Source: Phoronis australis
Taxonomy: Eukaryota; Animalia; Phoronida
Length of the DNA: 64,000 nucleotides
Direction of reading: 5' to 3'
Assembly (NCBI GenBank): GCA_002633005.1
Contig: NMRA01000921.1
Span: 1-64,000, forward strand
Shown: piece after piece, positions 3,704-58,322 of the stretch
How the letters are laid out: every line of letters begins with the position of its first letter
Position numbering within the stretch: the first letter of the stretch is position 1
Notes under the pieces: model-generated
Database searches by the model: none
Seen by the model: the letters and a program-made list of their open reading frames with translations, nothing else
What the model was told of the DNA's origin: nothing
Translations under genes and position numbers: made by a program

Positions 3704-3777
3704 TTTCTGATTACTTCCCTTTCAATGCATTTTGACGTGTATCTGTACAGTCTGTTTTCCACCAGTGTTACCTGATA

Positions 3778-3806: not shown

Positions 3807-4003
3807 CCTGATAGGAATGTGAACGTTTGTCTTAAGAATGGCTTAGTGACGATAAACCAAAATGTCGATTAATACAATGTCGTTTACATATGCGCTGATA
3901 TTAAAGTTTATACTCATATTTTGGTCAAAACAATTGTGATCCTTCTTGTCATCACCTTGTCAAAGTGTACTAAGTACATGTATGCTAATAATATTGGTTT
4001 TCA

Positions 4004-21312: not shown

Positions 21313-21681
21313 AGTCCACAACAAGCTGGCTTTTTGAAGATTTAACTTTGCCGCCAGTAGCGCCCACTGCCACAGTGTACTGGCCTTCATCATCGGGTGT
21401 AACTTGTGACAAAGTGATGGTGAAGTTAGTTTTTCCATGCGAGTAGTCTGTAGAGCCACGAGATTTAAAGTCACTATGAAATACTCCATCAACATTAATT
21501 GTAGAGGGTGGCATAAAGTAAGGGGCTTCAAACAAATAACTGCCATCCCATTTCTTCAACACAACTTTGGTAAAGGTTTCACCACTCCCCATTGCATAAC
21601 TTATCTTGAATTCAGCATTTCCACCATTGACACCAGTGACTGTAGGAGTTGAAGTCACACTAAGGGCTGAAACAACAACAC
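21313..21681 (-). CDS. Ig V-type domain exon lacking the canonical cysteines (probable N-terminal domain of IgSF gene B)
   Basis: TTTTCAG| acceptor, |GTAAGT donor, 369 nt, phase 1-1; VVVSA/LSVTSTPTVTGVNGGNAEFKISY...FKSRG...NFTITLSQVTPDDEGQYTVAV...SQLVVD. V-set D-x-G-x-Y motif present, no Cys. Signal-peptide exon not located. Confidence 0.8.
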
Positions 21682-25954: not shown

Positions 25955-28575
25955 AAGTGCCAATTGAATGACAATGAATGAACACAATGAAATTAACAAC
26001 GTCGTTTTACAGCTTGTAAGATTCATAATAAACGTATTTTGAATATTGCAATGCATGTGTTCCAAAATCTAAATAACTTGGGTCCTATTGTTGTACTCAT
26101 ATTTGTTTTCGCTCCTCTTTTCAAATATTACAGTAAGAACTACGTAAAACTCTCTCTGCTAGCTAGATTGTAATCAGCTGATCATATCCGCATGAGCGAA
26201 GCCAATTATCCTCGCTGGTGACTCGATGACTAGAGCAGCTTGGCGGCATCCCTTTGATCGTGAACCGAGCGCGACTCAGCCAAGGTGGATAAATACGGTC
26301 TAGTTCAATTTTCCATACCCCACCGTTGACCTTAACCACTGGGGTTAGAACCAATCTTATTTAGTGGGAATGTTCATAGCATGAGTTCTGTTGCCCACAG
26401 ATTAGTCAATCACAATTAAATTTACAAAATTGATGAGTATATAGCCGGCCTGTGCCGTCCTGTAATCTTATTAGAGCCGTAGTGCGCACACAACCAGTAA
26501 CAATAACTTGGATTTCAACTATTCTCACGCGATGACACTTTAGAAATGCGCGCGTGTGGGCGCATAAGCTTCACGTGTTGCAGAGTTCACAGCAGACATC
26601 AAATTTATGGTACGATACTAGCTGTCAAGTTCCGAGTCAAAGACCAGTTTTAAAATTAATGATGAAATAAAGGTTTGAAAATCAAATTCAGGTGTTTTTT
26701 TTGTTTTTGGGATGTTTATGTTGAAGACTAATTAGATTAGATTAGACACCCTGACTCATTATCAACGTATGGTTCTGCGGCTATCTGTTTTATCTCGACC
26801 GCCCGGCGTTGCCCACTTCCAATTGCGTGAAACATGCCACGCAAAGAAGATGAGACTCGGGGGTAAGCGGGCATGAGCCAGTCGTCAATCAAAATTTACC
26901 GCAAAGGCATTACTCAAAAACAAGTATTTGCTTAAGATTTTATATTCAAATTACTAAGACTATGCAGGGGTCGACGCTATTCAAATCGCCAGGTCACATT
27001 TTGCGACCTAGCCAAAATCCCAGGTCGCATTTTCAAAATCCAGTTCGCATTCATAAATGCCAGGTCGTAAAAATTTCCCGCCATTTTTACGCTTCAAATT
27101 TGATTTTTTAGATCACCGAGAAAATGTTTAGATTATGCTCTTACCTGCAGCGTTAAATACTGAAAAATTTCATATCGCAAAACTGAGTTCGTTAATGCAG
27201 GTACGGTATTACTGTTCTTCACGACCGCCATTGAAAGGCCCTAAAGCGCAAGGCAAGTTGCCGACGTGAAAGTTGAATCAGTGCTCCCTAACTGAACGTG
27301 CATTCGAGTAGCTACGTTTGCGATGTGAAAAGGGAGAAAATGCCCGTTGAAAAAATATCCGTGATTTTGCTAGGTCTGACCTGCTACTGGCTGTCATCAA
27401 ACTCGTTAAAGATCCAAACTAACTCGGAGGGCCCTCCACTTTTTATTAGTAACCCAAATTTTGAAACTTAACTCGACGTTCGAAAAACATCTGACAAAAA
27501 AAAATGTGAAACGGTGCCCTAACCGAATGATGTATTTGGATGCGCGGGAACAATTCAGTGCAAATTTCATAACAAAAATGTTGTATTTATGCTGTTTACG
27601 TACTCAACAATTCGTTTTCTATGAAATGAATAGCCTCGAAATAATTCCCGACTGCGTGAGGGATTCCATCGCGTAATTCGAGTTTGCTCCTCAATACCTT
27701 CCAAGTACGGGGAAAATAGGTCAGTCACAAAACAACACGCATGTCACTAGTGTTAAGTTTCTTTCGCAGTTATGAAACAAAGCCGGGATTTGGTTTATAC
27801 ATATTGAGAAAAATGTTTTTGAACACTGAATTTGTTGTGTAAAATGAGAGTGACACACTATATAGGCTGCGTGTCAATTTTAAACCACGAGTGGTCATTT
27901 GTATAGTGCGCTATGATGGGCGCTAGCCTGAACCGTGGGCGCTTAATGGGAAATTCTCAAAGGTTGAAGGGGAACGCTTAGTAAATCAGTGACCACTTAT
28001 TACAAAACACTTCAAAGGTAGGGAGTAGGCTTGTGCGTGAGCATTGTCGTCAGTGTTTGCGTTAATAAGATATTAAACGACTGCAATGTAAATATAGATT
28101 ATTACATGGCGAAGTCGTTATCCCCCGTTATCTAGAGCCCGAGTGAATTTTGGTGAATTATCGCCCGAGGGGCGTTAGCCCCGAGGGTGATAATTCTCCA
28201 AAATCCACGAGGGCTCTAGATGNTGACAGAATAGCTTACGAGATTACCTTTTGAACAGAGTAAGAAACAGCAAATGGCCAACAACGTTTGTTGTTCCATT
28301 CTGATGTTGCTCTGGACGAATACAGTGCTGATGAATGTACACTGTACAGTGTATGTAGACTGTAGTATGAGCAGACGACAAACTTATGGGCGCTAAAGCA
28401 CGGTTTCTCCTAGTTATCGCTAGATAGCGCTGCTATTTGCGACTCTCCCGGCGCTGGTCCCTGCGTGTCGCCAAATCTGTTGACCAAACACCTTAACCTA
28501 CATCATGATTCTACAGCTCCTGATGTCACACGTGGGATGGCACGTGCTTTTCCGAACGACAGGCATCAACCAGGA

Positions 28576-31500: not shown

Positions 31501-33011
31501 CCCAGTTCGTTTTCGGAAAGCTATGGTGCCATAGTGTNGATAGGCTAACGTTCCTGGAGAAACACGTATTAAGTTATAATTCTACACACATGGTTTGTAC
31601 ATAATGTCGGTTTGATATGCTTGTGTACAATGAAAACGAAATAGAAATTATTTTTCATGTGGTCATGCCAAATTTACCCAATACTGTAGAGGGTCTTCGA
31701 GCACACACAAACTGATTCTGGTTTGTATTTCCACTTGGCTCTATCTGCTTCATAACCAAAATCTATTTCACGTAGTGCGTATTTAATTTGTACTCAATAC
31801 TTGTTTCTTCCACTAGTTAGTACTAGAGAACGGTGCGAAAACCCTTCCAAGACAACCTCTCGCAGCAGTTGACGAGCAGATGTATAAAATACACGTATGA
31901 GCAACCACTGGGCATTAAAATGTGTCTAGAGAGAAGTTTTCAATTCAAAGTTTTTTGCATAGTACGCTTTAGGTCTCGCGACGGACCAGTCCAGCTTGAT
32001 TTGTGTAGATATTCAGTTTCAGTGTACATGTGGTCCCTCGGTGAACTAGTCTTGTGATGTTTTTTATCAAACTGTGCTTTTTAAAACTATTTGTCTCAGC
32101 CAGTAGGCCTAATGTTTGGTCCCGCCGCGACAGATCGACTACTTTTATAGGGATAATAAGCACGGGTGCACTTTTGGTCTCGTAACGGACCAGGCCAGCC
32201 TTTTTGTGTTTTCTCAGTGTACATCTGCATGGTCGCTCTGCAAACTCAGTGGTCCTGTATATCTTTTCACCACCATGAACATGTTTTGGTTTCGTGAAAC
32301 TGTTTTCAGATGATTTGTTTCCTGACACATTTGTCATTTTTCAATTGTTGTCAACATGATTCAGCTAAATAAAGTGATACCACGAAGAGATCTCTTCCTG
32401 GTGATACTTAATTGTTTATTGTCGCTTTTTTCAATAGACTATGAGCTGAGAGCACCATCGTTCGCCACTTGTTCTCGTAACGAGACAAAACACATGTTTA
32501 TTTCCGGACTAACAGAACATGTCTTCGTTCTTAAACAACTTGAGGGTGCTGTTACGCGATCATGTAATATTCCATTTTTACGCCCCGTCGGTGCTCCTTA
32601 TGCTCTTGAATATTTGGTAGTTGTCTAAACCCCACACTTTTTCGTATACGACTTTTCGTATGCTAAAAAAGGTGTGTGCAAGCAGATGTTCTAACAAAAT
32701 TTTTGGCTGGTGACGTGACTCATACCCAGATGTGCACAAATATGGTTTCGTGAAACTCATGAGCCTCGTTCATGTGAAGAAATCGAGAAGGGTTTTAAAT
32801 TATCTTAAGAAAAACTCAAGAGACATGTTAAGTGCCAGAAACTTACCAGGATGCATAAAATTTCAGTATTTGGCTACAAAAACAAAACATTGTCTTACAC
32901 CGGAGGGAGGAAACCCCCTCCCGACCTCCCCCCTCTCGGCGCAACGCGCCTCGGATTCGACCTTTGCGGGAATCCTAAACCCCCCTTACTGAATACGTAG
33001 ATCCGCCACTG
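28576..33011. mobile_element. Non-autonomous hAT-like element, 16-bp TIR, 5-bp TSD CAGGA
   Basis: CAGTGGCGGATCTACG at 28576; CGTAGATCCGCCACTG ending at 33011 (also at 31255 in the duplicated segment); CAGGA on both sides. Confidence 0.75.
29900..29956. repeat. AACCATGGTT 10-bp palindromic tandem repeat running into an assembly join
   Basis: About five imperfect units ending at n29957. Confidence 0.6.
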
Positions 33012-33293
33012 CAGGATCCATGAAGACGAAGTGCATGCCAAGTGGCGAATTTGAGTGGAAAAGAAATCTTTGTGTCCGACGTTGAATCAACTCTGTTTTA
33101 AAACCCCTTTGTTACAATTATTCTTAACATATTAGAATTACGCCGATTTCTGTTAACTAGCGGTACCCGTAACCTCAGCATAAAACTCGTCGGCAAATAT
33201 TTTTTAAATCTAGCGAAGAAATCGAAAATTGGGCGATTTTTGAAAATCATAATATTCCCAGTTCGTTTTCGGAAAGCTATGGTGCCATAGTGT
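29958..33293 (+). repeat. Near-identical direct duplication (29958-31537 vs 31714-33293), probably an assembly/haplotype artefact
   Basis: Offset 1756 bp with few substitutions; the first copy is bounded by single-n joins at 29957 and 31538. Confidence 0.8.
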
Positions 33294-34305
33294 TGTTTCC
33301 ATATAGTTTTACATTTGTATTTCAAAGTTTCTACATAACAGTGGATGCAACACTTGAATGAATATCAGCATCAACAGCAAATTACAAGAAACCATCTAGA
33401 AAAAGACCTAACATTAACATTTCAAGTGAAGCCAACATAATGAAAAAACAATAATTACCCGAAAAACTAGCAGAATAATAAGCAAAACACTTACAGTAAA
33501 CTGTAATAACAATTAACATGTTCATCAAACAAGTAACATTTGAACATCATAACAACAAATTACAACACGGATGTGAAAAAACCAGGTTCATGAAAAACAA
33601 AAGTTAGTTTCTCAAAGCACTACGTGTTTTCCTCAACAATAGAAAGCAATACAGTTTTAGCAAAGGAGTGCTTTACTGTGCGCTTTTGCGAGGTTTGCGG
33701 TAATGTAATGCCACAAATCAGATGTAATGTCCAAATGACTAACAAGCAAAATAAACAGAGTGAATCTCAAAAACAACACCTTCATCAAACAAAAAAATGA
33801 ACTAACATTAACAATTAACAATCATCAAAGAAATAATAAATTGACATTACATAAAAAATATATGAATTTTTTATGTGGAACACAACACGGTTCAACGAAA
33901 AATAGACGTTAGGTTCTAAAAACAATAGGTATATAGCTGAGCACTAGAATAATGCCGTTTTAACATTAAAGTATATCATTGTCTGCCTCCGCTACGGTTG
34001 CCCACTATAAATCAGTTGAAAAGCCCAAAGAAGTAACAAGCAAAAGTCAGTAAAATCTAATAACAATTAATTAATAACAATCAAGTAGCCATTGAAAATC
34101 GTCAGGCATGTAAAAATAAAATGTGATTCATGAAAAACAAATTTTAAGTTATCAAGTCAACAAGCAATTAGATCACTGCGGAGAATTGAAAAAATAATGT
34201 TTTAGCTTTGGAGTTCATTGTTTACTGCCTTTGGGGTGAAGAAAATCAGCTGGAATGTTCAATATAAAAACTGGCACACCGCTTGTCTTTGATGACTTCA
34301 AAGCT

Positions 34306-34388
34306 TTAAAAGGCGGTGATCATCACCATCACACCAAAGGCTGCCCCGAGTAGGATTTTGTTTGGAATATCGTCGCATCCAACCGACA
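34306..34388 (-). CDS. Terminal coding exon with GPI-anchor-like signal (IgSF gene A)
   Basis: CTCTTTTTGCAG| acceptor; phase-1 reading (V)SVGCDDIPNKILLGAAFGVMVMITAF*: small residues, spacer, hydrophobic C-terminus, no cytoplasmic tail. Confidence 0.6.
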
Positions 34389-38285: not shown

Positions 38286-38891
38286 CTAACTAAGATAATT
38301 ATTAAAATCTCAAATAGCCATGTTTCTGCGAGGCGCGAATGTACTGTGTATGAAAAAGAAGTGAAAGTATGAAATGAGGAAGAATATCTCAAAATTTGAA
38401 AATAAAAACCAAAATGAAACATGTTTCTGTGACATAATTGATACAGATTATATTGTCATCGCATCGACAAATACAGCAGTTAAGAGAACACATTTTGCAC
38501 TCAATTCATCAGAGTAAAAACAAATGGAAACACAAGACTTAATGTAAATAGACCTTCAGAAGAAATGCTCTTCAGAGAATAAGTCGTTCAGCGGTAGGGC
38601 ACGATACAATTCCGATTTCCCATTTCCTTAAACCATTTGCAAAAATATATTAGAAAATTTCATAATAGTCTGAAAACTGTTCTAAAACAACGAGACACGC
38701 CTTACACGCATGTCTGTTGTTATCCATAAAAAGACCACAGGACAGTTGATCAAGAAACATTGAGTTCGTAAAAGATTTACACTTTGAACAAATCAAATGC
38801 ATTAATAAGAAAATGATATTAATCGTTCTTGTGAAATTGCCACATGAGTGAGCACACTTAATTTTTTAACTAGAGCAAAACATGGACGTAC

Positions 38892-38927
38892 CTCCACCTT
38901 CTCCATTTCCAATTGGTTTAACGGTAT
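38892..38927 (-). CDS. Stalk micro-exon 5 (DTVKPIGNGEGG)
   Basis: 36 nt, TTTACAG| and |GTACGT, phase 1-1; paralogous to four other micro-exons. Confidence 0.7.
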
Positions 38928-38995
38928 CTGTAAACCATAATTTAGCTTTACATTAAATGTTCTTGTAAAAGTGGAGTCTCCACACAAATGGAAAC

Positions 38996-40939
38996 ACAAG
39001 AGCAACGCAGAGCGTTGAAATGCGCCCACAATTGCACCGCATACGGTATCCTTCTAGGGTTGTTTATTGGACCATAAAGTGGCCAGTAGAGGGCATATAT
39101 GTAGTATGTTGTACTTTGCAAACTGGAAAGGCATGGTCATTATCTCCTCAATAGGCTAGGGGCAAAATGTGAGTGATCTTCATAATACAAGCACATCCTA
39201 TACATCAGTTGCTTAAAGCACCACCGAAACATAGAACTAAAAACAAATTTACCAACATACGAGATTAGCACAGCATTAGAATGCCAGAAACAAATTTCTA
39301 CTTGGAAGTTTTCCTACATAGTCACGAAGTAACACAAAGTATACACCTGAAGACCTATGAAAATACAGAGGTCAATGTAAAATACTTAAATTGCCACTAG
39401 AGGCATACCGGTAGTCAGAATCATCCTAAAGTCGTCATCGTCCGTTGTCAACATCACATAAATACAATTGCTAAATTTAGTAAAGATCCTGCAAACGGTT
39501 TGGGAGATACAGCCATGGGCGCAAAAAAAACTGCCACTAGGAGGCGCCACAGTGATCAAAGTCATCGGAAATTCAGCGTCAACCGTCCTCTTCATAGTAA
39601 GAACATACATGCCAATTTTCACAATCATACTTATAGCGGTTTGGTTGATAGAGGGGTGGACGCCAAAAAACAGACTCAAAAACGGTAAAAATGGCTACTG
39701 GGTGTCGCAAACTAGGTCAAATCCATCCGAAAACAAGAGGATAGCGTCATCCCACAATTAGGTGCCTACATACCAAATTTCATGAAAATCCGTTAAGGAC
39801 TTATGAAGATACAGAGGTAAACGTAAAAAAATAAAATTGCCACTAGGGGGCACACTGGTAGGCGGATCCGTCCAAAAGTCATCGGCTGATAACATAATAT
39901 AATTACACTTATTAAATTTTCTAAAGATCCTGCGTACAGTTTAGGAGATACATCCATAGGCGCAAAAACAAAACAAAACTGCCACTAGGAGGTGCCACAG
40001 TGGTCGAAATCGTCTGAAAATCATCGTCAACCGTCCTCTACATAGCAAGCATATACATGCCAATTTTCACAATCATCCTTCGAGCGGTTTGGTTGATAGA
40101 GGGGTGGACGCACAAAACAGGCTCGAAAACACTAAAAAATGGCCACTAGGTGGCGCAAACTATGTCGAATCCATCTGAAAACGGGAGGATAGCGTCATCT
40201 CACTAATAGGTGCCGACATACCAAATTTCATGAAAATCCGTTCAGGACTTTTGAAGATACAAAGGTAAGCGTAAAAAAATTAAAATTGCCACTAGGGGGC
40301 ACACCGGTAGTCGGATCCGTCCAAAAGTCGTCATCTTCTGTTGTTAACATCATATAAATATACTTACACAATTTCGTAACGATCCTGCGAACGGTTTAGG
40401 GGCAGCCATAGGCGCAAAAAAACAAAACTGCCACTAGGAGGCGCCACAGTGGTCGAAATCGTCGGAAAATCATCGTCAATTGTCGTCTACATTATAAGCA
40501 TATACATGCCAATTTTCACAATCATCCTTCGAGCGGTTTTGTTGATAGAGGGGTGGACGCACAAAAACAGACTCGAAAACACTAAGAATGGCCACTAAGT
40601 GGCGCAAACTATGTCGAATCCATCTGAAAACGGCAGCATAGCGTCACCTCACTAATAGGTGCCTACACACCAAATTTCATGAAAATCCGTTCAGGACTTT
40701 AGAAGATACAAAGGTAAGCGTAAAAAACTAAAATTGCCACTAGGGGGCACACCGGTAGTCGGATCTGTCCGAAAGTTCGCACATGCTGTCCCATTCATGA
40801 ATAGAACATACCCGTATGTGCCAAATTTCATGAACGTCTGTCAAAGGGTTTTGGAGATAAAGCAGCGGACGCTTGACGCCACCCGGACGGACGGAGATGA
40901 CGGCATAATGCGTCCACATATAAATATGTGGGCGCATAA
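38996..40939. mobile_element. HINE/Helentron-like (pearl/DINE-type) element, family 1, copy 1
   Basis: Starts ACAAGAGCAACGC...ATGCGCCC; about 447-bp tandem units (AAATTGCCACTAG at about 39388, 39834, 40283, 40731); GACG microsatellite; terminal hairpin ATGCGTCCACATAT-AA-ATATGTGGGCGCAT. Confidence 0.75.
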
Positions 40940-41393
40940 CAAGTGACAAAAAGTTAATGTGCGCCAATGAAACACGGAATTTTAAATCTAGTCTGCTCAT
41001 AGTTGGTAGAATGAGCATACAGGGTACAGTTGGCACCTTTCTTGTGTTCAGAAAGACTATGGCACAAAATTCGAGTGGTCATGCCAAGGTGAAACTCACG
41101 CCAATCACTATAAATCACATACCCACAGCAAATGGTTTTCTGGGGTTAAGGTTCTTGATCATGCCAAACTTAATCAGTGAGACTATTCACATACAGGCCC
41201 CTGAATGCTGGGATGTCATGCAATAGGAAAGTTTGAATATTATAATACTGGTAGCTTCCTTTTTGCTTTCCCAACATTTCTTACTTCTCACTTGGTGAAA
41301 AATTCTTTTAAAAGCGACATGTGGTCAGCCCTCAATTATGATCAGTGTTCAGTGATCAAAGTTAATTTTGAGAAAGAGAAAATAATGTCATAC

Positions 41394-41429
41394 CTCCACC
41401 TTTTCCATTTTCTGTTGGCTTAACAGTAT
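41394..41429 (-). CDS. Stalk micro-exon 4 (DTVKPTENGKGG)
   Basis: 36 nt, TTTCCAG| and |GTATGA, phase 1-1. Confidence 0.7.
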
Positions 41430-42270
41430 CTGGAAATCATAATTTAGTTGCACCATCAATATTTTTATACAATGTACGTATCCATACTTCGAAGTTGAGG
41501 CTCAAAAGAAATGAAAATGCAATTGGTGAAATTTTGTAGTCCGTGTACAGGTATGTCTGCTTTTCTAATTTATACTAAACTGAAAGAAATGATACTAAAA
41601 TTTAGTGGCAAAGGAGTTCAGCAATTTTTCTTATTTTAGTACCAAAAAACTTGTTCATCAGTAGTTAGAGCAGCCAGGACTTTGAATCGTGACAATTGTC
41701 TGACATAGTCATAGCGCCACCATGTGGATTAGCTTCTAAAAGTACGCATTGTAACAAATTCCGTGATGGAGCAGGAGTACTTTCGAACATATGATGACCT
41801 AACAAAATGTGTTAACAGAGAAGCCCTACACCAAATGAATTAAAAAATGCCAAATAAGAAAATGAATATGCTTTCACAAGGTGCAAATGAAATAAAAATC
41901 CCCATTCATGCATAATACTATATGTAATTGAAATTTCTTTTGTTTTTGGAGAACATGCGTTTATAAATGTATTAGCGGAAAATCAATAAAAGACAGTTAT
42001 GATACTTGGCGTTTCCCAAACGAAGTGTACAATTCTGTTTTCTCCATTCCTTGCAACATTTCTCAAACATTTGGAAGAGTATATGTTTTCAGCAATGTCA
42101 TAATAGTTTGAACATACGGACCCATTAGCAGTTCGTACAAGGGGATTTGCAGTTTCGAAAAAAGACTCGAATTGCGTTGATAGGAGCTGATGCTGTTCAT
42201 GCTAGAAATGAAAGAGGGGTATTGTCTGTCTAATGATGAGTTTTTAAATTTGAGAAAAATATTGACATAC

Positions 42271-42300
42271 CTCCACCTTCTCCACTTCTAGTTGTAGTGT
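42271..42300 (-). CDS. Stalk micro-exon 3 (DTTTRSGEGG)
   Basis: 30 nt (in-frame 6-nt deletion relative to the others), TTTGCAG| and |GTATGT, phase 1-1. Confidence 0.7.
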
Positions 42301-42497
42301 CTGCAAATTATAATTAAGTTTTATATTAAGTATTCATGTCTTTAATAACAAAAATGTGGTGCACAACAAATGCGCCACTAGGTGGCACGAAATATGCCGA
42401 ATTCATGTGAAAATAGCAAAATGTCATTGTTTCTTTAATGGAAAGGTAATGTCTGCCTAATATTAAGTTTCTAATTTGGAGAAAAATAATGACACAC

Positions 42498-42533
42498 CTC
42501 CACCTTCTCCACTTCCAGTTGGTTTAATAGTGT
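42498..42533 (-). CDS. Stalk micro-exon 2 (DTIKPTGSGEGG)
   Basis: 36 nt, TTTGCAG| and |GTGTGT, phase 1-1. Confidence 0.65.
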
Positions 42534-45500
42534 CTGCAAATTATAATTAAGTTTTATGATGGTAAGTATTCATATCTGTAAGCAGAAGTTGGTGCATGAG
42601 AAATGCGCCAATGAATGCACCGCCAATGATCTGCTTCGAGGGATGTTTATTTATATTCCAAAATGACCACTAGATGGCGCGAAATATGCCAATCTGAAAA
42701 TAGCAACATGTCATTGTTTCTTTAATGGAAAGCTATTTACCAAATTTCATGAAAAATTGTCAAATAACGTCAGAGAAAATTAGGAAAACTGAAAAAATGA
42801 AACTGCCACTAGGGGGCACAGCTTTTGCTGGGTCTATCCTCAAGTCGTCGTCCATTGTCAACGTCATATAACTACATGTGCTAAATTTAACAAAGATTCT
42901 GCAGTGGGTTTAGGAAGTGGAAAAAAAATGTCACTAGGAGGGGGTTGTACTGAAACCCCCTTGATCTTCAACCCCCTCGATCCACGACCCATGAGGTGCA
43001 ACCCCCTCTACCCATGAACTGTGGCGATAGAGGTATCTGTGCCATTTTTACCTATTACACAATCTTATTACGTCGCTGGGCACCTTTCCCATAAGACATA
43101 CTTTAACGCCAGTCTGCTCTGGCTGAAGTCTGGTGATAGGAAACAGAAAGTGGCATGGGAATTCCGGTGGTCTTGAATAAAGCATTGTGAGCGCGCTAGA
43201 CGTCATCCCTATATCGTGCAAGTCAACATAACGTGCAGTACAGTTAGACAAACGGCTATCAATGGCACAGTTCAGATAAACTTAGGGAGAGAGAGTACGT
43301 TAACGTGAATGTACATAATTTCATATTTTTATTATTCGCTCTATATTCGTTTACAATATACTCCATATAATGCTGGAATACTTTTTATGTAGTTAAATTT
43401 TTGTTTTTCAAACTGTATTTACTGGTGATTTTATAGTTTTGTTAGTTCCTCAAACTCACTAATAAATGCTTATCTGCCAAATTTTATGAAAATCTGTGGA
43501 GGATCTTTTAAGATACAGACTGAGGTAAATGTGAAAATCTAAAATTTAATGAAGATCCTGCAAAGCGTTAACAAGATGCAGGCATAGGTGCCAAAGTCAA
43601 ACAAAATTGCCACAGTCTTATCAAATTTACCTGATGATGATTACTGATTATTTTACAAACGTCATTTTCCAGCTACACATTAGCTTCATTTTTGTTTTCC
43701 CAGCATTTCTTACTTCTCATTTGGCCAAACACTAATATTATTCTCGTGAAAGCGGCATAAGGACAACCTACTATTAACNNNNNNNNNNNNNNNNNNNNNN
43801 NNNNNNNNNNNNNNNNNNNNNNNNNNNNNNNNNNNNNNNNNNNNNNNNNNNNNNNNNNNNNNNNNNNNNNNNNNNNNNNNNNNNNNNNNNNNNNNNNNNN
43901 NNNNNNNNNNNNNNNNNNNNNNNNNNNNNNNNNNNNNNNNNNNNNNNNNNNNNNNNNNNNNNNNNNNNNNNNNNNNNNNNNNNNNNNNNNNNNNNNNNNN
44001 NNNNNNNNNNNNNNNNNNNNNNNNNNNNNNNNNNNNNNNNNNNNNNNNNNNNNNNNNNNNNNNNNNNNNNNNNNNNNNNNNNNNNNNNNNNNNNNNNNNN
44101 NNNNNNNNNNNNNNNNNNNNNNNNNNNNNNNNNNNNNNNNNNNNNNNNNNNNNNNNNNNNNNNNNNNNNNNNNNNNNNNNNNNNNNNNNNNNNNNNNNNN
44201 NNNNNNNNNNNNNNNNNNNNNNNNNNNNNNNNNNNNNNNNNNNNNNNNNNNNNNNNNNNNNNNNNNNNNNNNNNNNNNNNNNNNNNNNNNNNNNNNNNNN
44301 NNNNNNNNNNNNNNNNNNNNNNNNNNNNNNNNNNNNNNNNNNNNNNNNNNNNNNNNNNNNNNNNNNNNNNNNNNNNNNNNNNNNNNNNNNNNNNNNNNNN
44401 NNNNNNNNNNNNNNNNNNNNNNNNNNNNNNNNNNNNNNNNNNNNNNNNNNNNNNNNNNNNNNNNNNNNNNNNNNNNNNNNNNNNNAGATTATGTTTCAAT
44501 GGTTTTTATGCAGATTCACGATGTTTTTAAAACGTCTACAAACGGATCATATGACTTTAATAGCTTATTTAATGCATTAGAGTAAAATCAATGAAAAGAC
44601 AGTTCTCGCACACAGAAACACAACGTCCTTTTGGACTAAAGACCCTTCTGTACGTAGGATTTCAATGCAGTTTTTTTGTTTTCCCCATTCGTTGCACCAT
44701 ATTCGCAATATTTGGAACAAGAGCAACGAAGAGCGTTGGAATGCGTCAACGAATTTGAAGTTGGGAACAATGACTTGAATTGCTTTGATACGAAAATGAT
44801 GCTGTTAATGCGGCGTATCGACGGCTACCTACTGACCGAGAATGTCTGTGTTCCAATTTCCTAAAAAAGTGAAAGTTGCACAGAAATGGCAACGTTTTTG
44901 CACCGTACAAGAGTGTGGAGTGACGGTACGGAACATACCACTCAGTCAGTAGCCACACTTTTTTCTGCATATTTCAGTCTAGGAATCGGGTTTCAACCGA
45001 ACACAGAAGCGGCGTTAGGAGGAAGGACTGTCCACCATGTAGTGTATTTCTAAATTTTATAAATAACGGACAGAATGCTTCCATTCTAGGATGAGTGATG
45101 CTACGCCCTGGACCCGGGCTCAGAAGGAGTGCTAGGACACGTAGGCTGATGCACGGTGTTTAGACCCCACTAATTCTACATGGCAACAGTGAATACGAGT
45201 GACCAAGGTTTAACACAGCCTTTGAGAGTTTACCACTCCTTGGTTCAGTTGGTTGTAGCTCACTTATGTCTGCGGCATTGATCGTGCAAGTGGTTCAAGT
45301 TTGTATGGTCTCAAAGTCGATGACATTTGTTGTCCGATTCTTCTAGTATTTGATTGTATTCCCGTATCTATACTCTCCTCTCTGTCCGCATAATAATTGT
45401 CAAAATCTCGCTCAAAATCGACCTCGTCTTCTGATCTGCTGTGTTCTGCCATTAATGCAATTGATTGTCAAGTGACCAAATATCTTCCTTCCATTACATC

Positions 45501-45684
45501 ATTTGCAAATAACAAATTTTCCTTCAAAATTAAAAAATGGCTACCATTTGGCATAAAAAGGACTTATTCAGTTAGATTTTATGACATTCATTTCATATTA
45601 GCTAACTGAAACCTCAAAGACTAAGGAAATGCATTGTAGGAATTCATTAGGTTAATTTCAAGTTTAAGAAAAATATTGACATAC

Positions 45685-45720
45685 CTCCACCTTCTCCACT
45701 TTCAGTTGGCTTAATAGTGT
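45685..45720 (-). CDS. Stalk micro-exon 1 (DTIKPTESGEGG)
   Basis: 36 nt, TTTGCAG| and |GTATGT, phase 1-1. Confidence 0.7.
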
Positions 45721-47759
45721 CTGCAAATTATAATTAAGTTTTATATTAAATATTCATATCTATAAGCAACAGTTGGTGCACAGCAGAAAGATGCAGGATG
45801 TGAAAAGATACTGTGCATGTATAGTTGTGACACATGGAATGTCCTCATTTTCTAAATGGCAATTGTGGCAATTGCACTTCATTGAAATAAATGAAGTTGA
45901 ACGTACACAAGTATTCCGTAAGTTTTTGGATTGGAAACAGGGGTTTGTAGCCAGGACCCGTAGATCTAATCTATGTCCACGAGTGTTTAACTGGCCGGAC
46001 AACCTGTATGACGTGGTCGGAGCACCACCACCACGTGGATTCTGGAAGTACGCCATTGCAGCAAATCCATGGATGACTGAGCAAAAGAATCTTCAAGCAA
46101 ATGGTGAACTAACAAAACTTGTGAAACTTGTTGATGAAGAATTTAAGTTCTACTCAGAACACCAAAGTGATGTTCCATGAGTCTGGATACTTCGATAACG
46201 TGCAAAGCAAGGTGCTCCCGACGATTGTCATTGGAATTGAGTAATGCCTGAGAAGTCACATGATGACAAAAGTAATGTTGATTATCAACAGAGTAGCAAT
46301 TCACCAGTCTGTCAGAATTATGCAGAGGTCGATTATATAGTATGCAACCAAAGACCACTTGAAGTTTTTAGCTAGCTTGTGAATACATCAAAACAAACAC
46401 GTCCCGTACAATATTTCATCAAAATCCTTCAAGCACCACGTTAAACGGACAGGTCCGAAAATGAAGGTCAGAATCTGATGTATTCTCTTCAACTGAAACA
46501 CATACATCATAATACCACTATATCAATTATGGGGCTTGTTAGAATTTGAGATAAAACACAAAAAAGAAAAGAAAAGGCTGGTATTAATCATCCTTTGAAC
46601 CCTGTAGCATAAAGAGATGAATAGTAACTGAAAAACCTGGAGACGTAAACATAATAAAAATGGCCGCAGGGGGAAAATTGGTATCCAATTCAAAATGGTG
46701 AGGTGTCGTCGTCTCTATAATATCAAAATATTTACCTAATTTGAAAAAAAATCTGTCCAAAAATTGGGTATAGAATTTAAAAAACAACTTGACATTAGGG
46801 GGCAAATAAGAGGATAAACCACCATTTTATTCAAGCTCAACTTGAAACAGACAGCTAGATTCAATATACGCGACTCACACCACATGAGAGGGCAAAATTT
46901 TTGTAGCAATTATTCGTAAGCAAGATCTCCATTTCAGGACCGACCAAACTTGTGATAATTATACATCATTTGCGTTTTCCAACTACACAAACACACCAAC
47001 TTGCAGCCCTGAGGGGGCCAATGTTTGGACAATTTCTAGTGTGGGTGTGTGTGTCAGTGACACCACACTGAACATTGACGCATTAACACATATAAACAAT
47101 CTCAGATTCAGTGATTGTAAAAGAGATGACGGGTTCACTGATAACGCTACTTCCATTGACATGCCGGCACCACATGTACTCGTGAGATGCGGGAATTGGT
47201 GGAGATGACGTGACACCTCCACAAGTCAAACTGACTTGATCCTTGATGTAGTAGTCAAATGGTGATCGTTTTTAACATACTTGAATGTCAGCATCGGTTA
47301 TAGGCACTGATGCTGGTTGAAAAATTAAAAGAAAAGAAGCCATGAAATATACATTCTCAATCTAATACGGCAAGGTGAAATTCCTTGTCGAAACCCACCA
47401 ATTGCACTTGGCCCATATTATGGAACGAAAACTGCTAGGAACTGTACGTAACTGCGATGAAGGGATACGTTAACACAGCACTCTCTAATGATGATGAATT
47501 TCTATATAACAAGTTTATTCAATGTATTTCAACCACCAGTCCTGAGGTATGTGTTGTGATTTTTGATTCAAGAATCAATACATTAAACTAATTAATTTTA
47601 ATAATTTATCTTTTGCACCAACTCAGTTTCAGATTTGATGGAGAAACGTTACATGGCTTGAGTTCTCCCCCCACCGCCTGCCTACGTAGGGAAGACTACT
47701 TGGCATTCAAGAAGAGCAGAAATCATCTTCAATCTCTTTTCCCTACATCAGGGGGATTT

Positions 47760-48110
47760 CAGAACACCTATATACGTCTAGTTTATATCCCTGATGATGT
47801 CAACACCTATAGGAAGCCCGTTAACAGCCTGAGAAACGAACTAGTCCACCTCAAGGATCCCACCCCCTCGATCCCCAATGTTGTCATATCTCAAATGTCT
47901 TGCACTGAAGATCCATCTCATACCTACATCTGTGAGACTAAGCGATCCCTAGGTACCAGAATCAAAGAGCACAACAAACTGGACAAGTCCACAAGCATGG
48001 GAGAACATCCCGGAACATCTGGCCATACTGTAAGTGGTAAATGTGCCAAAACACTGTCTAAAGAAGAGAACTGGATCTCAAAGGAAGTTAAGGAATAATG
48101 AGACACAATA
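47760..48110 (+). pseudogene. Penelope-like GIY-YIG endonuclease fragment
   Basis: KPVNSLRNELVHLKDP...VISQMSC...YICETKRSLGTRIKEH...GEH...GHTV matches the PLE GIY-YIG pattern (YIGET.R.L..R..EH). Confidence 0.7.
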
Positions 48111-48897
48111 TGGCAGACAAGAGAAATTTTACTTTGTCAAAGTTAAGGAATTTGTTATTTATTTTTTAACCCTTGTCTGTGTAATGTAACGGTCTCCAAA
48201 CAATTGGTCAAATTTTGAGAATTCAAGCTATTTACTAAGCTTCTGAAAATCAGAGAAATGCAAATTTTAAGAACTACTTTTGTCCATGATTGAAAAATTT
48301 AAAAACAAATTATCAAGTATTTCATTATGGGTCAAAAGAAACAATAATTGCTACAGTAGTTATTTTCTATGCAAACTTGTTGATTCAGTTCGTGACTTAC
48401 GAACCTTGATTGGGGGTTTCAGAATGAACTGTTGAACTAGATTATAAAATACACTGTAGACAGTATTTGACTGTTGCTGCCTATACCAAAACTGACTGTG
48501 TCTACTTGAACGACCTCACAAAACATCTAACTGTAACAAATCTGCGGTACATTAAGCCAAAGTTCGACAAATCAACTGGTAGATCAAGAATTGGTAATTA
48601 GATTTTGCAATTTCAACCTGACATATTGTACCAGTCAGTATAATTTGACCTAAAATCGCGACTCAGAAGACCAGACCTTGGAGTAATTTTTGGCCAGGGA
48701 AATGTGAAAGGCTTACCACATTGAAGTGGAGCAAACCTTCAAGATTTGAAAGTAATTCTCATGTTTTGACAATGCGTTGACATTTCAGAATATATGCATA
48801 CAATTGTCCACACATAAGTACAATTTGCATAATGTTTACGATAATCCCATACACAGTACAATTTTTTCAAGAGGAAAAAACAGAGTAAGTCTTCTGC

Positions 48898-50605
48898 AAC
48901 AAGAGCAACGCGGAGCTTTGAAATGCGTCCACGAATGCATCGCAAATGCTGTGCTTTTAGGGTTGCTTATTTGTGTCATAAAATGGGTACTAGATGGCTC
49001 AAAAACATGTAATCCTTCCGAATATGGGAACATGTCACTGATTCTTTAATAGAAATCTATACACAAAATTCCAAATTTCATAGAAATCCACCAAGGAACT
49101 TCAGAGAAACAAAGGAAAATGGAATAAAATGAAATTGCCATAAGGGGGCACTCCACCTGTCTATTGTTTGCTTCATATAAATACATTTACTAAATTTAAT
49201 AAAGATCCTCCAGTGGATTTAGGAGATACAGCTTTGGGCGCAAAACAAAACAAAACTACCACTAGGAGGAGCCAGAGTAGTCAAAGCCGTCATCATCAAC
49301 CGTCCTCTTCACACTGAGAACATATATGATATGCTTAGGATGATTTGGTTGATAGAGAGGTAGACTCGAAAACAGCAAAAAAATGGCCAATAGGTGATGC
49401 AAATTACGTTGATTCTATCCAAAAATGGGAGGATTGCGTCATCTCATCAATAGATGCCCGTATTCAAAATTTTATGGAAATCTGTTGAGGACCTTTGAAC
49501 ATACAGAGGTAAACGTAAAACTTAAATTGCCACCAGGGGGAATATCAGTATTCAGATCCATCCCAAAATAATCTTCGTTCGTTGTCAACATTATGTAAAC
49601 ACACTTATTAATTTTAGTAAAGATCCTACAAACAGTTAAGGAGATATAGCTATGGGCACAAAAACAAACTGTCACTAGGAGGCGCCACAGTAGTCAGTCA
49701 TCAGAAAATCATCATCAGCCGTTAACTTTATAATAAAAACATATATGCCAATTTTCACAATTATCCTGAAAGCGGATTGGTTTATAGAGGGGTGGACGCC
49801 AAAAGACAGACTCGAAAACAGTAAAAACGGCCACTGGATGGCAAATCCATCTGAAAATGGAAAGACAGCATCACCTAACAGAAGCCTGTACGCCAAGTTT
49901 TATGAAAATACTTGAGGACCTTTGAAGATTCATAGGAAAACATAAAAAATAAAATTGCCACTAGGTGGCACACCAGCCAACAGATCTGTCTGAAAGTCAT
50001 TGTCGTCCATTCTCAAAATCATATAAATAAATGCACTTACTAAATTTAGTAAAGATGCTGCCAAACGGTTAAAGAGATAAAGGCATAGGCACCAAAAATA
50101 AAACTGCCACTAGGAGGCGCCACAGTAGTTGAAGTCATCAGAAAATCATCGCCAACTTTCATCTTCATAGTAAAACATACATGCCAATTTTCACAATCAC
50201 GCTTAAAGCAGTTTGGTTGATAGAGGGGTGGACATCAAAAAACAGACTTGAAAACAGTAAAAATGGCCATTAGGTGGGGCAAACCACCTCGAATTCATCC
50301 GAAAACGGGAGGATGATGTCATTTTACTACTTATGTACCAAATTTCATGAAAATACCTTGAGGACCTTTGAAGGCAAATGTAAAAAAACAAATTGCCACT
50401 AGGGGGCACACCGGTAGCTGGATAAGTCGGAAAGTTCGTTCATGACGTCCCATTAATGAAAGGAATACATGTCCAAAACTTCATGAGCATACCTCAATCG
50501 GTTTTGGGGATGCCAGAAGCTGGGCACCGGAAGCCAGACGGACGCCGCTCGGACGGACGCAGATGACAGCATAATACGTCCATATATAAATATGTGGGCG
50601 CATAA
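48898..50605. mobile_element. HINE family 1, copy 2
   Basis: Same head AACAAGAGCAACGC...ATGCGTCC, GCCACTAGG tandem units, GACG repeats and terminal ATATGTGGGCGCATAA hairpin as 38996-40939. Confidence 0.75.
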
Positions 50606-52396
50606 TAAACCAAATTTGAGGGTAACTAACAGGAAAGTTAGTAAAAAGGTGAAAAGGTCAACCTTGAGACAGAAATTAAAACCGTGTTTCTGTTTCTGCT
50701 TCTGTTTCTGTGCTGACGTCAGAGGGTAGGCACCGGGATAGTCTCTGGTACTCCTCCTTGCAGTATCGCACGCACTATAAATTTGGAGATGCTGTGCCTG
50801 TACTAAAATTTCTGGTCTCATCTAACATGCCATTCTAACCAGGTGTCCTATAACTTTCAATTTTTTGGCTAAATGGACAAATGACCCTAAAAATTAGCTC
50901 GATTTTCATGTGTGTTGCTAATTCTTGTCATAAAAATGCTAATTATGGGTATTTCACTATACTATCAAATTTGTGCAATCACATGGACCCCAAACTTTAT
51001 AAAAATAACATCTCAACTTTGGCACATAATTGACCTCACTAGGTCAAAGGTCATCTCCTGGATATCATGGTGCCGTATGCCGTCCACTACAAAAGTGTTA
51101 AATAGTTAAGTTAATGTTAAGTTTTCAATCACAATTAAATTATTAATTCCTGATTCTTATTTAACTAGTTACGCAATATAGACCAAAATTTTAGATCCTA
51201 GGAATTATTTGTTCAGTCAGAAATTGCGTGACAGACGTACAGCGAATTTGTACGTTCGTCACCTCCGTCCATCACAGCCAAGAAATTACAATATTTCAGC
51301 CAATAAAAATAAACTTCGGTCATATTTTACTTTCAAACCTTGCAGAAGATAAACTGTTACAGTTGTTGACCACTTGTATCATTAGGAGGTGACACCAACA
51401 AGAAAACAATACATTACAGAAAGGGTCAATATATATGGCCACATCAGGCTACATTTGAATTTTCACAATTCTAATTCCAAAAGCAAGTTTTCAGTCAGCA
51501 GCTTTTCTGCTGACTTTTCCTAGATTTAGATTGACAACAGATGCTCACCAATGTGTCAAATCTTCCTTTTTGTTCCCTCACAGTTAGGCAGCTGCACAAA
51601 ATAATGTGAAAGTGAAAACAATAAATTTTGTAAACCACGCTGCCTGACCTAACCCTAACCTCCACTTTCACTTTGACATGATTCTCTAAACAGTGTTGAG
51701 CTGGGAACAGATTTTGGGCTTGGCCTGCCAAGCTCTCAGTTGTTTAGTCTTGTGTTTGTAAGCAAGCAGTTCCTGACCTGGCATAATTGGATGATTCTGA
51801 CTGGGCCATGGTTAAGACATTAAATGTATCTTGGTGTAATAAGTTCTCTGTGTATGGGTCTTTTGTTTTAAGTTTAACAGTGGTGTTTTAGGAGATTTAA
51901 TTGAAAGATATCATGAAAATTAGATGGTTGGAAGACTACAATAGTCCATATCTCTATGCCATAAAGAAATCTTGTTGAAGAAACGTAGTGACACAAATAT
52001 ACACATTTCCATGGTGCATGCGGACACAGTGAAATAGGCCTACCCTCCACTATATGAAAAATGACCCCTATAAACTCAACTTGGAAACACCAGCCACTCG
52101 CATGTGGAAATCCTGCTGTTACTTGTCAAAGTAATTATATGCATTTACTAAGGTATTCACAAGTGGTACTTATTCTCTTACTTCACATTTTTTGACGTGA
52201 CAAAACGGTAGGATTGTCATTTTCGAGTTCTTTTATTGGCATTTAATGATTCTTCATTGTTGTTGAAGGTCAGGCCAAAATTTGGGACCCATTCAACCTC
52301 ATGTTTACTGACTTTCTAAAACCGCTCTGAGGTGGTGGCGTATTACAACTATTATTAAAATCTCTTGGTCTATTTACACCGACCTCTAGTCTATAT

Positions 52397-52446
52397 ACAC
52401 TGTCACGACGTTTCGGTCGGTCTATTCGCCGGCCGTCATCAGGTGT
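52397..52446 (-). ncRNA. Candidate minimal type I hammerhead ribozyme (Penelope-type)
   Basis: Minus strand ACAC-CTGATGA-CGGCCGGCGAATAGACCGACC-GAAA-CGTCGTGACAGTGT: CUGAUGA and GAAA cores around an imperfect stem II; the copy in the right arm has a mutated core (CTGTCGA). Confidence 0.55.
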
Positions 52447-52478
52447 TCCCGCGTTCTTAGAAAAACACCACTACACCA

Positions 52479-52561
52479 CGGAGTCATGACGTAGTGGTTA
52501 ATGTGCTGGACTCTAATTATCTGTAGTTTCAGAAGTCGTGGGTTCAAATCTTGCCTAGGAC
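52479..52561 (+). mobile_element. tRNA-derived SINE head (Pol III A and B boxes)
   Basis: A-box-like TGACGTAGTGG and B-box-like GGTTCAAATC at tRNA-like spacing; no proper acceptor stem, so not a tRNA gene. Confidence 0.6.
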
Positions 52562-54210
52562 AAAAAATGACACCATGAGTGTACCACATATCCATGCTCG
52601 TTCTTCTAAGAACGCGGGAACACCTGTCGATGGCCGGAGAATAGACCAACCGAAACGTCGTGACAGAGTAAATAGACTAGAGGTCGGTGTAAATAGACCA
52701 AGAGATTTTAAAAATAGTTGTCTCATGTTTACTGTTAGGTATAGTGAAGTATACTGCAGTTGCAACTTCACTCCAGCCTCGCTATATCACAATAAGTACT
52801 GTGTTGTAATTTTATTGAGTGTTAACTAGCTTTAAATGTCAAGTATCAAACAGTTGCTCTGATTTTAAAATCAAAGTTTTAACTTGTCTTATTTCATATC
52901 TTGATTCTCAAAAACCTACATGTCCCAGACTGTTTAGGAGCTGTTTCAATTAAATGCAAGTGCTAGTTGAAAACATTCTTTGAATGTGCTCACCAAATGG
53001 CACCATAAAAGCAGCTGGACAGATTGTGGCAAACAATTTATGGTTGCAACTGGGATGTCCCCAACCTCAACAAACTCCAACCTCTTGAAATGTTTATCTA
53101 AAACATGCTTTATCAGTTAGTTGTCAAGGTTACGAACTTAAGCGGCCTTTTCAAACTGCCTGTAACTAAAGGACTTACAATACAGCTGGATTGGTAAGAC
53201 TGTACACTGAACTTAATGTAGATATATGCAGTATAATATTTGATTTCATTCAACAAGAAATAATTACTTCATAAGCATTCAGTCAAAGTTGGAAAAATCT
53301 TTCAATTTTGAGTAAAATTAATTGCTGGGTTTTTTATTATTCCTGGCTATCTGTTCATTATCAATCTCACTGCAATGATGGGAAACCCCCATTTCAGTTG
53401 ATACTTCGTATCATGGTGATGACAAAATGAATTCATGGATCATCCTTATCATTATTCAAAGTTAAGTAATAAGAAATTTCATAAATTATTCTAACTGGTG
53501 AAAAGACGTGCATGAAAATTATATCAACCGTGCGTTAAAATGTGAATTTTTGTGAAACATCATGTACCATTCATAGGAATTCAGAAATGGTTTATAAGAA
53601 TTGGATTTAATTAGATTTGTTTGCAAGCTACCAGTTACATTTCTTTTCCAATCAATGTGGAATTTACACAAAACGTGTATCGTGAGTAGCTCGAAGCCTA
53701 TTGTATTTGGTTGAAATCAGACGCAAGATGGCACTGTAGATACCATTTTTCGCTGTCTTGGTTTGCGGAGCCGTAGATTTACAGGTTCTATAATTTTTCT
53801 GATTTCTTTTTAGGGGAAAAATCATTTAAATGACCATAAGAAGTGTCCAATTTGTTTTTTTCCTTAGGACTTACTGTTTTGGAGTTATTCAAAATTTTCC
53901 GGCGACTGCTAGATAATCGAATCAATTTTTGTTCGGCATCTCTGGCAACACTTGCCGTATCTTTCTTGAAGCCAGTATATAGATAGTGCTATCTGCATTG
54001 TGCCATCCATTTCACACTATAACCTACCTTTTTCGAGATATTCAAGATTTACTAGCCACATGAATGTTGTTCTGTCGACTTACTGGTACTTTTAGCTGCA
54101 CTTCGGTCGCCTATTATATTCGTGACAGAGATTGTTTGTCTGATTGACATTGATTTACTTAGTGTTTATCTAGTCAAAAGCGCGAGCACTGGTTTGTGGA
54201 TGAACATGTA

Positions 54211-55075: not shown

Positions 55076-55399
55076 ATAAAATTGATGAGTTTCTAGACAT
55101 CTAGCCTACTATATTTTAATCTCTAACAATAAGACACTCACAGAAAAGATGAGTCTTAAAGTGAAAGCGAGGTCACAAGGCAGATCTGTCTTGTGACGAA
55201 AATGAAAGCATAGAAGCGCTGACATTAAACTTGTCATTGTGCTTTTTCTCCTCCGTTTTAAAGGGGTGGGGGGGTGCAAAATGGAAATTATTATCTATTC
55301 TGGGCTTGAGATTCGTTGGCAGGACAAGACCATAGCAACCGTGACGACTATGATCACATTGGTGGATTACAGTACCACAACATGATGAGCATAGTCACA

Positions 55400-57998: not shown

Positions 57999-58322
57999 CG
58001 GTCGCCTTAAGGACCTCAGTTTCAGCGTACAAAGTAGCCTGCCTGTTGGACACTTGACATCTAAACTGTACGCCATCATCAGCTGCATCCAAGTTGACCG
58101 TCAGTGTGCTGGTGCTGTTAGTGGTTCCATCATTGTTGTTGGCAGTAGTCTTGGTAACATTCTCTGTTATGTCTGTGTAGGCACCGCTACTTATTCGCCG
58201 TGACCACACCATAGATGCCTGTGGTTTGCCCAAATTGGCCGTACATATGAGAACAGTTGGTCCTAATCCACCAAGAACAGGCTGCGTCAGGGCACCAGAT
58301 ATAGATGGTGTACTTGGACGGA
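57999..58322 (-). CDS. Ig C2-type (CD80-like/nephrin-like) domain exon of IgSF gene A
   Basis: GAACAG| acceptor, |GTAAGT donor, 324 nt, phase 1-1; RPSTPSISG...VLICTANLGKPQASMVWSR...STSTLTVNLDAADDGVQFRCQVSN with canonical Cys, Trp and D-G-x-x-F-x-C. Confidence 0.88.

Follow-up and report, generated by a model that had tools for sequence, protein, structure and literature searches.

The design of an extracellular stalk in which each exon encodes one repeat is already known from chicken Muc13 and CADM1, and a related design from the tails of chicken BG proteins. In the PTS domain of chicken Muc13, as at the locus described here, each Pro/Thr/Ser-rich extracellular repeat has its own exon, the copies are near-identical and the array also holds an assembly gap; the protein is described as a SEA/TM mucin whose N-terminus carries 20-aa repeats, at least 12 in number (PMC1552070). 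Splicing control of repeat length, by which one individual could vary the length of its stalk, has been proposed for Muc13, not demonstrated (PMC1552070). CADM1 stalk exons 8 and 9, and a 39-bp stalk exon of CD166, are small Thr-rich in-frame exons that, as here, lead from the membrane-proximal IgC2 domain to the membrane, and inclusion of a 33-bp stalk exon changes stalk length, O-glycan spacing and shedding (PMC5385562). The chicken BG genes resemble the present locus in being an Ig-V multigene family with many duplicated repeat-coding exons, which in BG are of 21 nt with split codons and vary in number between genes (PMC5938342, PMC4046983).

The window analysed in this study is the whole stretch of 64,000 nt from Phoronis australis contig NMRA01000921.1 (Table 1). 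The gene encodes a V-C2-stalk protein with a predicted GPI anchor, and is one of a small tandem family. Between the C2 exon and the predicted-GPI last exon lie spliced, frame-preserving repeat exons, which probably add 12-residue units to a stalk that is likely to be O-glycosylated. Repeat number and sequence vary amongst transcripts, probably through inherited differences together with minor exon skipping.

Table 1. Features of the gene, its micro-exon array and the next paralogous gene in the window
Feature	Position	Strand	Description and evidence
V-set Ig exon, next paralogous gene	21313..21681	(-)	Pfam V-set E=2.8e-07; translation without cysteine
Candidate signal-peptide exon, next gene	28248..28299	(-)	Phase 1; by eye; no RNA reads there
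Last coding exon	34306..34388	(-)	VSVGCDDIPNKILLGAAFGVMVMITAF-stop; predicted GPI-attachment signal; translation and hydropathy
Micro-exon E	38892..38927	(-)	DTVKPIGNGEGG; last stalk unit
Micro-exon D	41394..41429	(-)	DTVKPTENGKGG; joints at both ends
Micro-exon C	42271..42300	(-)	30 nt, DTTTRSGEGG; nearly missing from RNA as assembled
Micro-exon B	42498..42533	(-)	DTIKPTGSGEGG; joints at both ends; reads cannot separate B from a hybrid unit
Assembly gap, probably with a D-like micro-exon inside	43779..44485	(-)	D-flank homology on both sides; position inferred
Micro-exon A	45685..45720	(-)	DTIKPTESGEGG; joints at both ends
C2-set Ig exon	57999..58322	(-)	324 nt, phase 1-1; Pfam C2-set_2 E=2.8e-08; splice sites

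The initial annotation described five minus-strand segments, and its coordinates proved exact (36, 36, 30, 36 and 36 nt for A to E). All five have a YCAG acceptor, a GT donor, an open phase 1-1 frame and a length divisible by 3, and the sole indel in the alignment is one of 6 nt, in C. Alignment and translations reveal that the exons are paralogous, each being one repeat unit, and that all units are symmetric and alike at start and end. The reported lack of stop codons holds in all five, but cannot set the frame alone, since a second frame is open in 5/5; the stalk reading frame is fixed because the C2 exon ends in phase 1. The motif DT(I/V)KPxx(S/N)GxGG is present in four of the five copies but not in C, while SGEG occurs in A, B and C, as had been noted.

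Pairwise identity of the four 36-nt exons is 81–94%, and pN/pS is 0.3–0.5 in all six exon pairs, which are not independent. Identity in the flanks 31–70 nt downstream is 40–49%, as against 44% for random pairs; the nearest flanks (-30 to -4) are also alike between copies (59–96%). When exon and flank divergence are compared, as the annotation had suggested, the exons are the more conserved, but the difference from the nearest flanks is not significant (variable columns 9/36 versus 15/34, P=0.13). The array may have grown as an exon and about 30–100 nt of its flank were duplicated locally.

A matrix derived from four of the copies was scored on both strands of the readable sequence. The training copies scored 100–108 bits and C, on which the matrix was not trained, 24–29 bits; every other position reached 7.4 bits or less, and therefore the readable sequence holds no sixth close copy on either strand. 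A 36-nt candidate exon at 57147–57112 was rejected as unsupported, with a bin depth below 1; it is one of 17 non-array segments amongst the 22 that follow the same splice rules.

A further copy had been suspected within the assembly gap, the surroundings of which do resemble the flanks of D. The sequences at 44571–44604 and 44753–44811 are similar to that upstream of D, 43681–43724 matches the sequence downstream of D at 91%, and the offsets from both sides put a D-like exon within the run of Ns. A D-like unit that the assembly lacks, translated by hand as TVMPTETGEAV, comes before an A-placed unit in 60 reads of RNA run X2. An extra copy is thus present in RNA and fits the gap geometry, but its location in the gap is deduced from the flanks.

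About 18–19% of each of three RNA runs (X1, X2 and X3) was read. The joints are taken from the best 15 of 481 in one mapping and the best 15 of 37 in another, and several carry the flag 'between: not known'. As predicted, the micro-exons are spliced into mRNA: hundreds of X1 and X2 reads cross A/B-type units, D and E at exact GT-AG boundaries, while X3 has only 1–5 reads of the array. The read strand fits a minus-strand transcript, and the splice order is C2, A/B-type units, D, E and last exon. The joint from C2 to A (45720–57999) is found in 56, 30 and 3 reads of X1, X2 and X3, respectively; in X1/X2 there are 81/72 reads from A to D, 90/74 from B to D, 176/179 from D to E, and 210/211 with loose ends after E running into the last exon at 34388. 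In X1, the read consensus 3' of E matches 28 of the first 30 nt of that exon. Exon D appears to be included near-constantly, because its depth at 41425 (264 in X1, 248 in X2) fits the joints into it (about 170 in X1, 146–148 in X2) and out of it (170–179). Bin depth on C is 0.76/0.79, equal to at most 4 reads per run compared with 248–264 on D, and no joint among those listed touches C; a 36-nt allele of C would map onto A or B.

By the exon order in the reads, the last IgC2 domain is followed by the small in-frame exons, and these by the putative membrane anchor. The exon spliced 5' of C2 resembles the 3' end of the neighbouring V exon (27/30 positions in X1, 24/25 in X3), and the V and signal exons of this gene itself lie outside the window. 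The micro-exons contribute 174 nt of coding sequence, as against 324 nt for C2, 83 nt for the last exon and about 369 nt for the V exon, and encode an estimated 58 of roughly 330 residues. GPI signals comprise a small-residue site, a short polar spacer and a C-terminal hydrophobic tail, with no cytoplasmic part. The last exon encodes 27 residues, of which the final 16 carry no charge and reach 2.55 in window hydropathy, and the stop follows directly. By its sequence, the protein looks GPI-anchored and devoid of a cytoplasmic tail; this reading and those on glycosylation are predictions made by eye. The earlier description is supported in that the exons encode a linker of repeats after an Ig domain. 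Given the GPI-like end without a cytoplasmic tail, the label 'Ig receptor' would call for a partner, or for an adhesion molecule.

Word-seeded protein searches revealed no full-length homologue, with longer relatives in 0/391 candidates for C2 and 0/1182 for V. A HMMER search over 1.84 billion representatives gave 366 matches at E<=0.001; most of the best 150 are long multi-Ig proteins, and the closest single-domain match among those listed is an 80-aa fragment (51%). Eight matched proteins were looked up, of which three are named, from Lingula, Pecten and Gigantopelta; of eight sequences read, none shows a similar repeat stalk. Metagenome scans returned no locus (0 matches for the pattern, 0/596 stretches for the C2 protein). 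In the PDB, V matches best to pIgR (E ~1e-4) and C2 to NCR3 ligand 1 (E=0.0025), both weak matches of a generic kind, and none of the 40 V matches or the best 60 of 177 C2 matches is a Wirin (Dpr/DIP/IgLON), a Beat or a CD2/SLAM member. No earlier description of the gene or family was found in a search that covered mainly open-access literature. This is apparently an undescribed, polymorphic V-C2-GPI gene family, the GPI anchor being predicted, and one that may act in adhesion or immune recognition in an invertebrate. Its stalk would escape ORF-based annotation.

Reads and assembly disagree at C2, A, D and the last exon. The C2 end carries two amino-acid-changing letters, and every X1 and X2 read shows a single synonymous change in D. 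At exon position 19, the B letter is present in 213/320 (X1) and 170/257 (X2) A-placed first-mate-plus reads, which represent an A/B hybrid unit. In addition, a B-type unit is separated from E by a further unit in 26 X1 reads and probably about 2 or fewer of X2, and the order B to A (44/26 reads in X1/X2) is not collinear with the assembly. The variant units, this order and the C2 changes together therefore suggest haplotypes or paralogues unlike the assembly. Joints that go back 36 nt were not counted as proof of extra genomic copies, since the hybrid unit maps randomly to A or B. The read counts may mix alleles, paralogues and skipping.

It is possible, although not favoured, that every exon is constitutive and that all mRNA variation stems from alleles and tandem paralogues differing in exon number, as in chicken BG. 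A paralogue adjoins the gene, an X3 C2 variant with another 5' end lacks the array (199 reads), and the differences between reads and assembly would also be accounted for; if animals were pooled, shares near 1 in 8 would fit as well. However, the low share of transcripts without D is similar in both expressing runs, which in single animals is easier to obtain by leaky splicing than from a segregating allele.

It is rather doubtful that the stalk bears glycosaminoglycan, with the Ser-Gly units (A, B, C and the hybrid) taking xylose, the Asn-Gly units (D and E) not, and exon choice determining chain number. Ser-Gly is followed by Glu-Gly-Gly-Asp in three of the five assembled units, and B and the hybrid contain Gly-Ser-Gly. 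Acidic patches and flanking Gly are given as common signatures of such sites, without a predictive consensus; activity falls when the peptide contains Lys or Arg at any position, and replacement of Gly at -1 of the acceptor is poorly tolerated (PMC13038410). Lys or Arg is present in 5/5 units, Gly is missing at -1 in A and C, and the Ser is not conserved across copies, being Asn in D and E, all of which argue against chain attachment. Each unit has 1–4 Thr/Ser, sparser than in a mucin.

Regulated combinatorial skipping, either of the MEG type put forward in the initial annotation or of the CADM1 type, would have one allele produce stalks of stepwise length, adjusted to tissue or state, and is unlikely. 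The symmetric units with like ends would allow it, and E is reached by at least three paths: after D, straight after an A/B-type unit (in X1 17 reads and up to 8 more, in X2 16 reads), or after the further unit seen mainly in X1. A-placed units are entered from C2 (63 loose ends, X1) or from the D-like unit. About 8–11% of the listed joints into E bypass D, alike in both runs; a row at 45714>45685 (12/14 reads) was left out of this count because the exon placed on A could be D or E. One 3' path is nevertheless dominant, with about 77–89% of the listed joints into E coming from D, and an allelic or paralogous origin of the variants would be possible. Splicing alone cannot yield unassembled units, one of them nearly confined to X1, or a non-collinear order. 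Of the three runs, two, X1 and X2, express the array.

More improbable still is a lineage-specific, GPI-linked V-C2 recognition family with a fast-changing array, whose alleles differ in the number and sequence of units, and with per-allele combinatorial splicing, forming a splice-tunable surface proteoglycan in an invertebrate. If this were true, each cell would set how tall its stalks are and how many Ser-Gly chain sites they carry. That the segments are an ordinary dispersed repeat, or pseudo-exons, is scarcely credible: the similar nearest flanks and the near absence of C from RNA agree with it, but the spliced reads with exact boundaries refute it for A/B-type units, D and E, so that it might apply to C alone.

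In the favoured reading, that of spliced repeat exons encoding a stalk, each unit would add a 12-residue Thr/Pro/Ser/Gly/Glu repeat, and the stalk is predicted to be flexible and O-glycosylated. Copy number and sequence of the array would differ between alleles or paralogues, most exons would be mostly included, and roughly one transcript in ten would drop D. The protein would act in adhesion or recognition at the surface, with a V-C2-stalk-GPI build; its stalk, about 58 residues long, or 70 if the gap unit is counted, would determine the distance of the Ig domains from the membrane and perhaps the ease of shedding. The stalk-length proposal made for Muc13 is easily testable here, because the gene is well expressed, a single amplicon can span the array and a minor form without D can already be seen.

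CD48 and CD58 are V-C2-GPI surface proteins, and CD2-family N domains lack cysteines, like the V domain of the neighbouring gene. Like the protein predicted here, these proteins and the GPI-linked Wirins/Dprs (PMC10084454) have a GPI anchor, either demonstrated or proposed, with two or three Ig domains and no cytoplasmic tail. The likeness to both groups is architectural, with no sequence evidence of membership. Schistosome MEGs share the very small symmetric exons permitting in-frame skipping, but their coding region is described as mostly micro-exons (PMC4350168). The present gene is not a MEG: most of its coding sequence is in ordinary Ig exons, and its micro-exons are copies of one unit that mostly follow one path. 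Unlike this stalk, the BG repeats are cytoplasmic heptads with a predicted coiled coil and not an extracellular linker (PMC5938342, PMC4046983). The CADM1 exons are not described in that account as copies of one unit, and the protein is transmembrane, with regulated splicing (PMC5385562); the likeness to CADM1 and CD166 is one of exon design and implies no orthology. Compared with Muc13, the present array has 5–6 repeats of 12 aa, which are adjacent to the membrane, belong to a V-C2 predicted-GPI protein from an invertebrate-like genome and are documented by spliced reads.

The initial annotation described five paralogous micro-exons, A to E in order of transcription. All five were found on the minus strand, each bounded by YCAG and GT, and exon alignment places the 6 nt indel in C, from which these nucleotides are missing. 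With the split first codon included, the translations are DTIKPTESGEGG (A), DTIKPTGSGEGG (B), DTTTRSGEGG (C), DTVKPTENGKGG (D) and DTVKPIGNGEGG (E). With a matrix built from the four other exons, C scored 24–29 bits; elsewhere on both strands of the window the maximum was 7.4 bits and no further copy was found. A 36 nt segment at 57112–57147, 850 nt past the C2 exon, is AG/GT-bounded, phase 1-1 and ends in Gly-Gly; it is within chance expectation, lacks read support and was rejected, although it is possibly an old or unused unit of the array.

Similarity between copies extends approximately 90–170 nt around each exon. Among the four 36 nt copies, identity is 81–94% in the exons, 59–81% at −30 to −4 and 40–49% at 31–70 nt downstream (random pairs, 44%). 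Exons are thus better conserved than downstream sequence, but not significantly more than the nearest flanks (P=0.13). In six of six exon pairs, which are non-independent and contain very few changes, pN/pS is 0.3–0.5.

Coordinates of the exons in the two genes
Feature	Position	Strand	Details
C2-set Ig exon	58322-57999	minus	324 nt, phase 1-1
Micro-exon A	45720-45685	minus	YCAG acceptor, GT donor
Micro-exon B	42533-42498	minus	YCAG acceptor, GT donor
Micro-exon C	42300-42271	minus	YCAG acceptor, GT donor; 6 nt shorter
Micro-exon D	41429-41394	minus	YCAG acceptor, GT donor
Micro-exon E	38927-38892	minus	YCAG acceptor, GT donor
Last exon	start 34388, stop 34306	minus	encodes VSVGCDDIPNKILLGAAFGVMVMITAF; comes after E
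Candidate signal exon, second gene	28299-28248	same direction as first gene	by eye
V-set exon, second gene	21681-21313	same direction as first gene	

Expression was assessed in three raw-read runs (X1–X3; approximately 18–19% of each was read) and one contig set, all with the same species label. Among the joints listed over 38501–58500 (best 15 of 481), GT-AG joints had 56/30/3 reads (X1/X2/X3) for C2 to A, 81/72/1 for A to D, 90/74/2 for B to D and 176/179/1 for D to E. Loose ends 3' of E (210/211 reads in X1/X2) match the last exon, at 28 of 30 letters in X1, and intron coverage between 38.9 and 58 kb is thin outside repeats. These joints, loose ends and thin coverage refute a plain dispersed repeat for A/B-type units, D and E. 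Coverage of C as assembled does not exceed 4 reads per run, whereas D has 264/248 (X1/X2); a 36 nt allele at C would map to A or B and might itself be among the like units described below.

The array in the RNA differs from that assembled. Over 41250–45900 (best 15 of 37 joints listed), B's letter at position 19 is carried by 213/320 (X1) and 170/257 (X2) of the reads on A. This hybrid unit is equidistant from A and B, which explains the even split between A-to-D and B-to-D joints and makes A-versus-B skipping unreadable. In the 38501–58500 listing, A-to-A (63/48 reads, X1/X2) and B-to-B (74/48) joints show two or more consecutive A/B-type units. B precedes A in 44/26 reads; no clean collinear A-to-B joint is among those listed, and a one-extra-letter variant has 8/8 reads. 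A further unit, TTKPTGSEEGG, separates a B-type unit from E in 26 X1 reads, and 60 X2 reads show a D-like unit, TVMPTETGEAV, ahead of one that maps to A. The latter is a good candidate for the copy suspected in the N run at 43779–44485, since the sequence on both sides matches the flanks of D and places a D-like exon inside.

The stretch 41250–45900 excludes E, and E reads there fell on B with six loose letters (over 30 positions, E differs from B at two; D, at five). D is joined to E in 170/172 reads (X1/X2). An A/B-type unit leads straight into E in 17 (plus up to 8) X1 reads and 16 X2 reads, and the extra unit does so in 26 X1 reads, which we infer to be the remainder of a 43-read row. With one ambiguous row of 12/14 reads excluded from the skip count, D supplies 77–80% of joints into E in X1 (n=213–221) and 89% in X2 (n=193), and is bypassed in 8–11%. 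This fits leaky skipping. It is also compatible with a D-less allele or paralogue. Reads and assembly disagree within C2, A, D and the last exon. X3 has a C2 variant with 199 loose ends and only 1–5 reads on the array, most simply a paralogue being expressed. These counts do not demonstrate regulated combinatorial splicing.

In the last-exon peptide a small-residue site is followed by a polar spacer and then by an uncharged tail of 16 residues, a pattern consistent with a GPI-attachment signal. The exon joined 5' of C2 in reads ends nearly like the neighbouring V exon (27/30 letters in X1, 24/25 in X3), suggesting a tandem cluster with a signal-V-C2-stalk-GPI plan. The second gene's V-set exon encodes no cysteines and therefore lacks the canonical Ig disulfide. 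Named relatives among eight proteins looked up were from one brachiopod and two molluscs, at most a hint of a lophotrochozoan-like source.

Intronic repeats (subunits of ~140–160 nt, higher-order unit of 448 nt) occupy 39000–40950, 42360–43600, 48900–50600 and 54200–55100. They contain 19 of the window's 20 matches (0.19 expected) to a motif resembling the CTCF site. RNA reads from one strand contain much related sequence (to a depth of ~1000), probably from other loci. The C2–A intron contains Penelope-type reverse transcriptase/GIY-YIG element-like fragments (46888–48098, by eye); reads near 47219–47242 likely come from another copy. Elsewhere, two element copies with 31 nt internal repeats (14334–16111 and 58942–60419) are 95–97% alike in parts, one breaking LTR-retrotransposon-like gag/pol fragments (~12.5–19.3 kb, family by eye). 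THAP/P-element-type transposase-like ORFs (6227–7900, 557 aa) and adjoining transposon genes lie at 1000–7900 (by eye). A near-identical tandem duplication of ~1.75 kb at 30071–33364, with single Ns at its bounds, may be an artefact of assembly or represent two alleles.

Splicing, unit order, frame and unit heterogeneity are seen in the mRNA pool. Short tandem duplications, each copying an exon together with its splice signals, may have expanded the array, with turnover between haplotypes. Its product would be a flexible spacer of ~58–70 residues between the Ig head and the predicted GPI anchor, with predicted O-glycosylation at Thr or Ser. Judged from the peptides, glycosaminoglycan attachment is possible; PMC13038410 gives such sites no predictive consensus and treats Lys or Arg as adverse, and every unit contains one or the other.

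No earlier description of this gene family was found in the literature searched. The array is a real, expressed feature, and RNA support with visible variation opens it to testing. In line with the schistosome parallel drawn initially, the gene could work partly like a micro-exon gene, but it falls outside the definition of mostly micro-exon coding sequence (PMC4350168). The design itself is known from other animals. Chicken BG genes likewise have duplicated small exons, of 21 nt and varying number (PMC5938342, PMC4046983). CADM1 also has small stalk exons between IgC2 and membrane, controlling shedding (PMC5385562), here placed 3' of the C2 exon and before the predicted anchor. Chicken Muc13 shares one exon per repeat in its extracellular region, and the same splicing-based length control stands as a proposal there too (PMC1552070).
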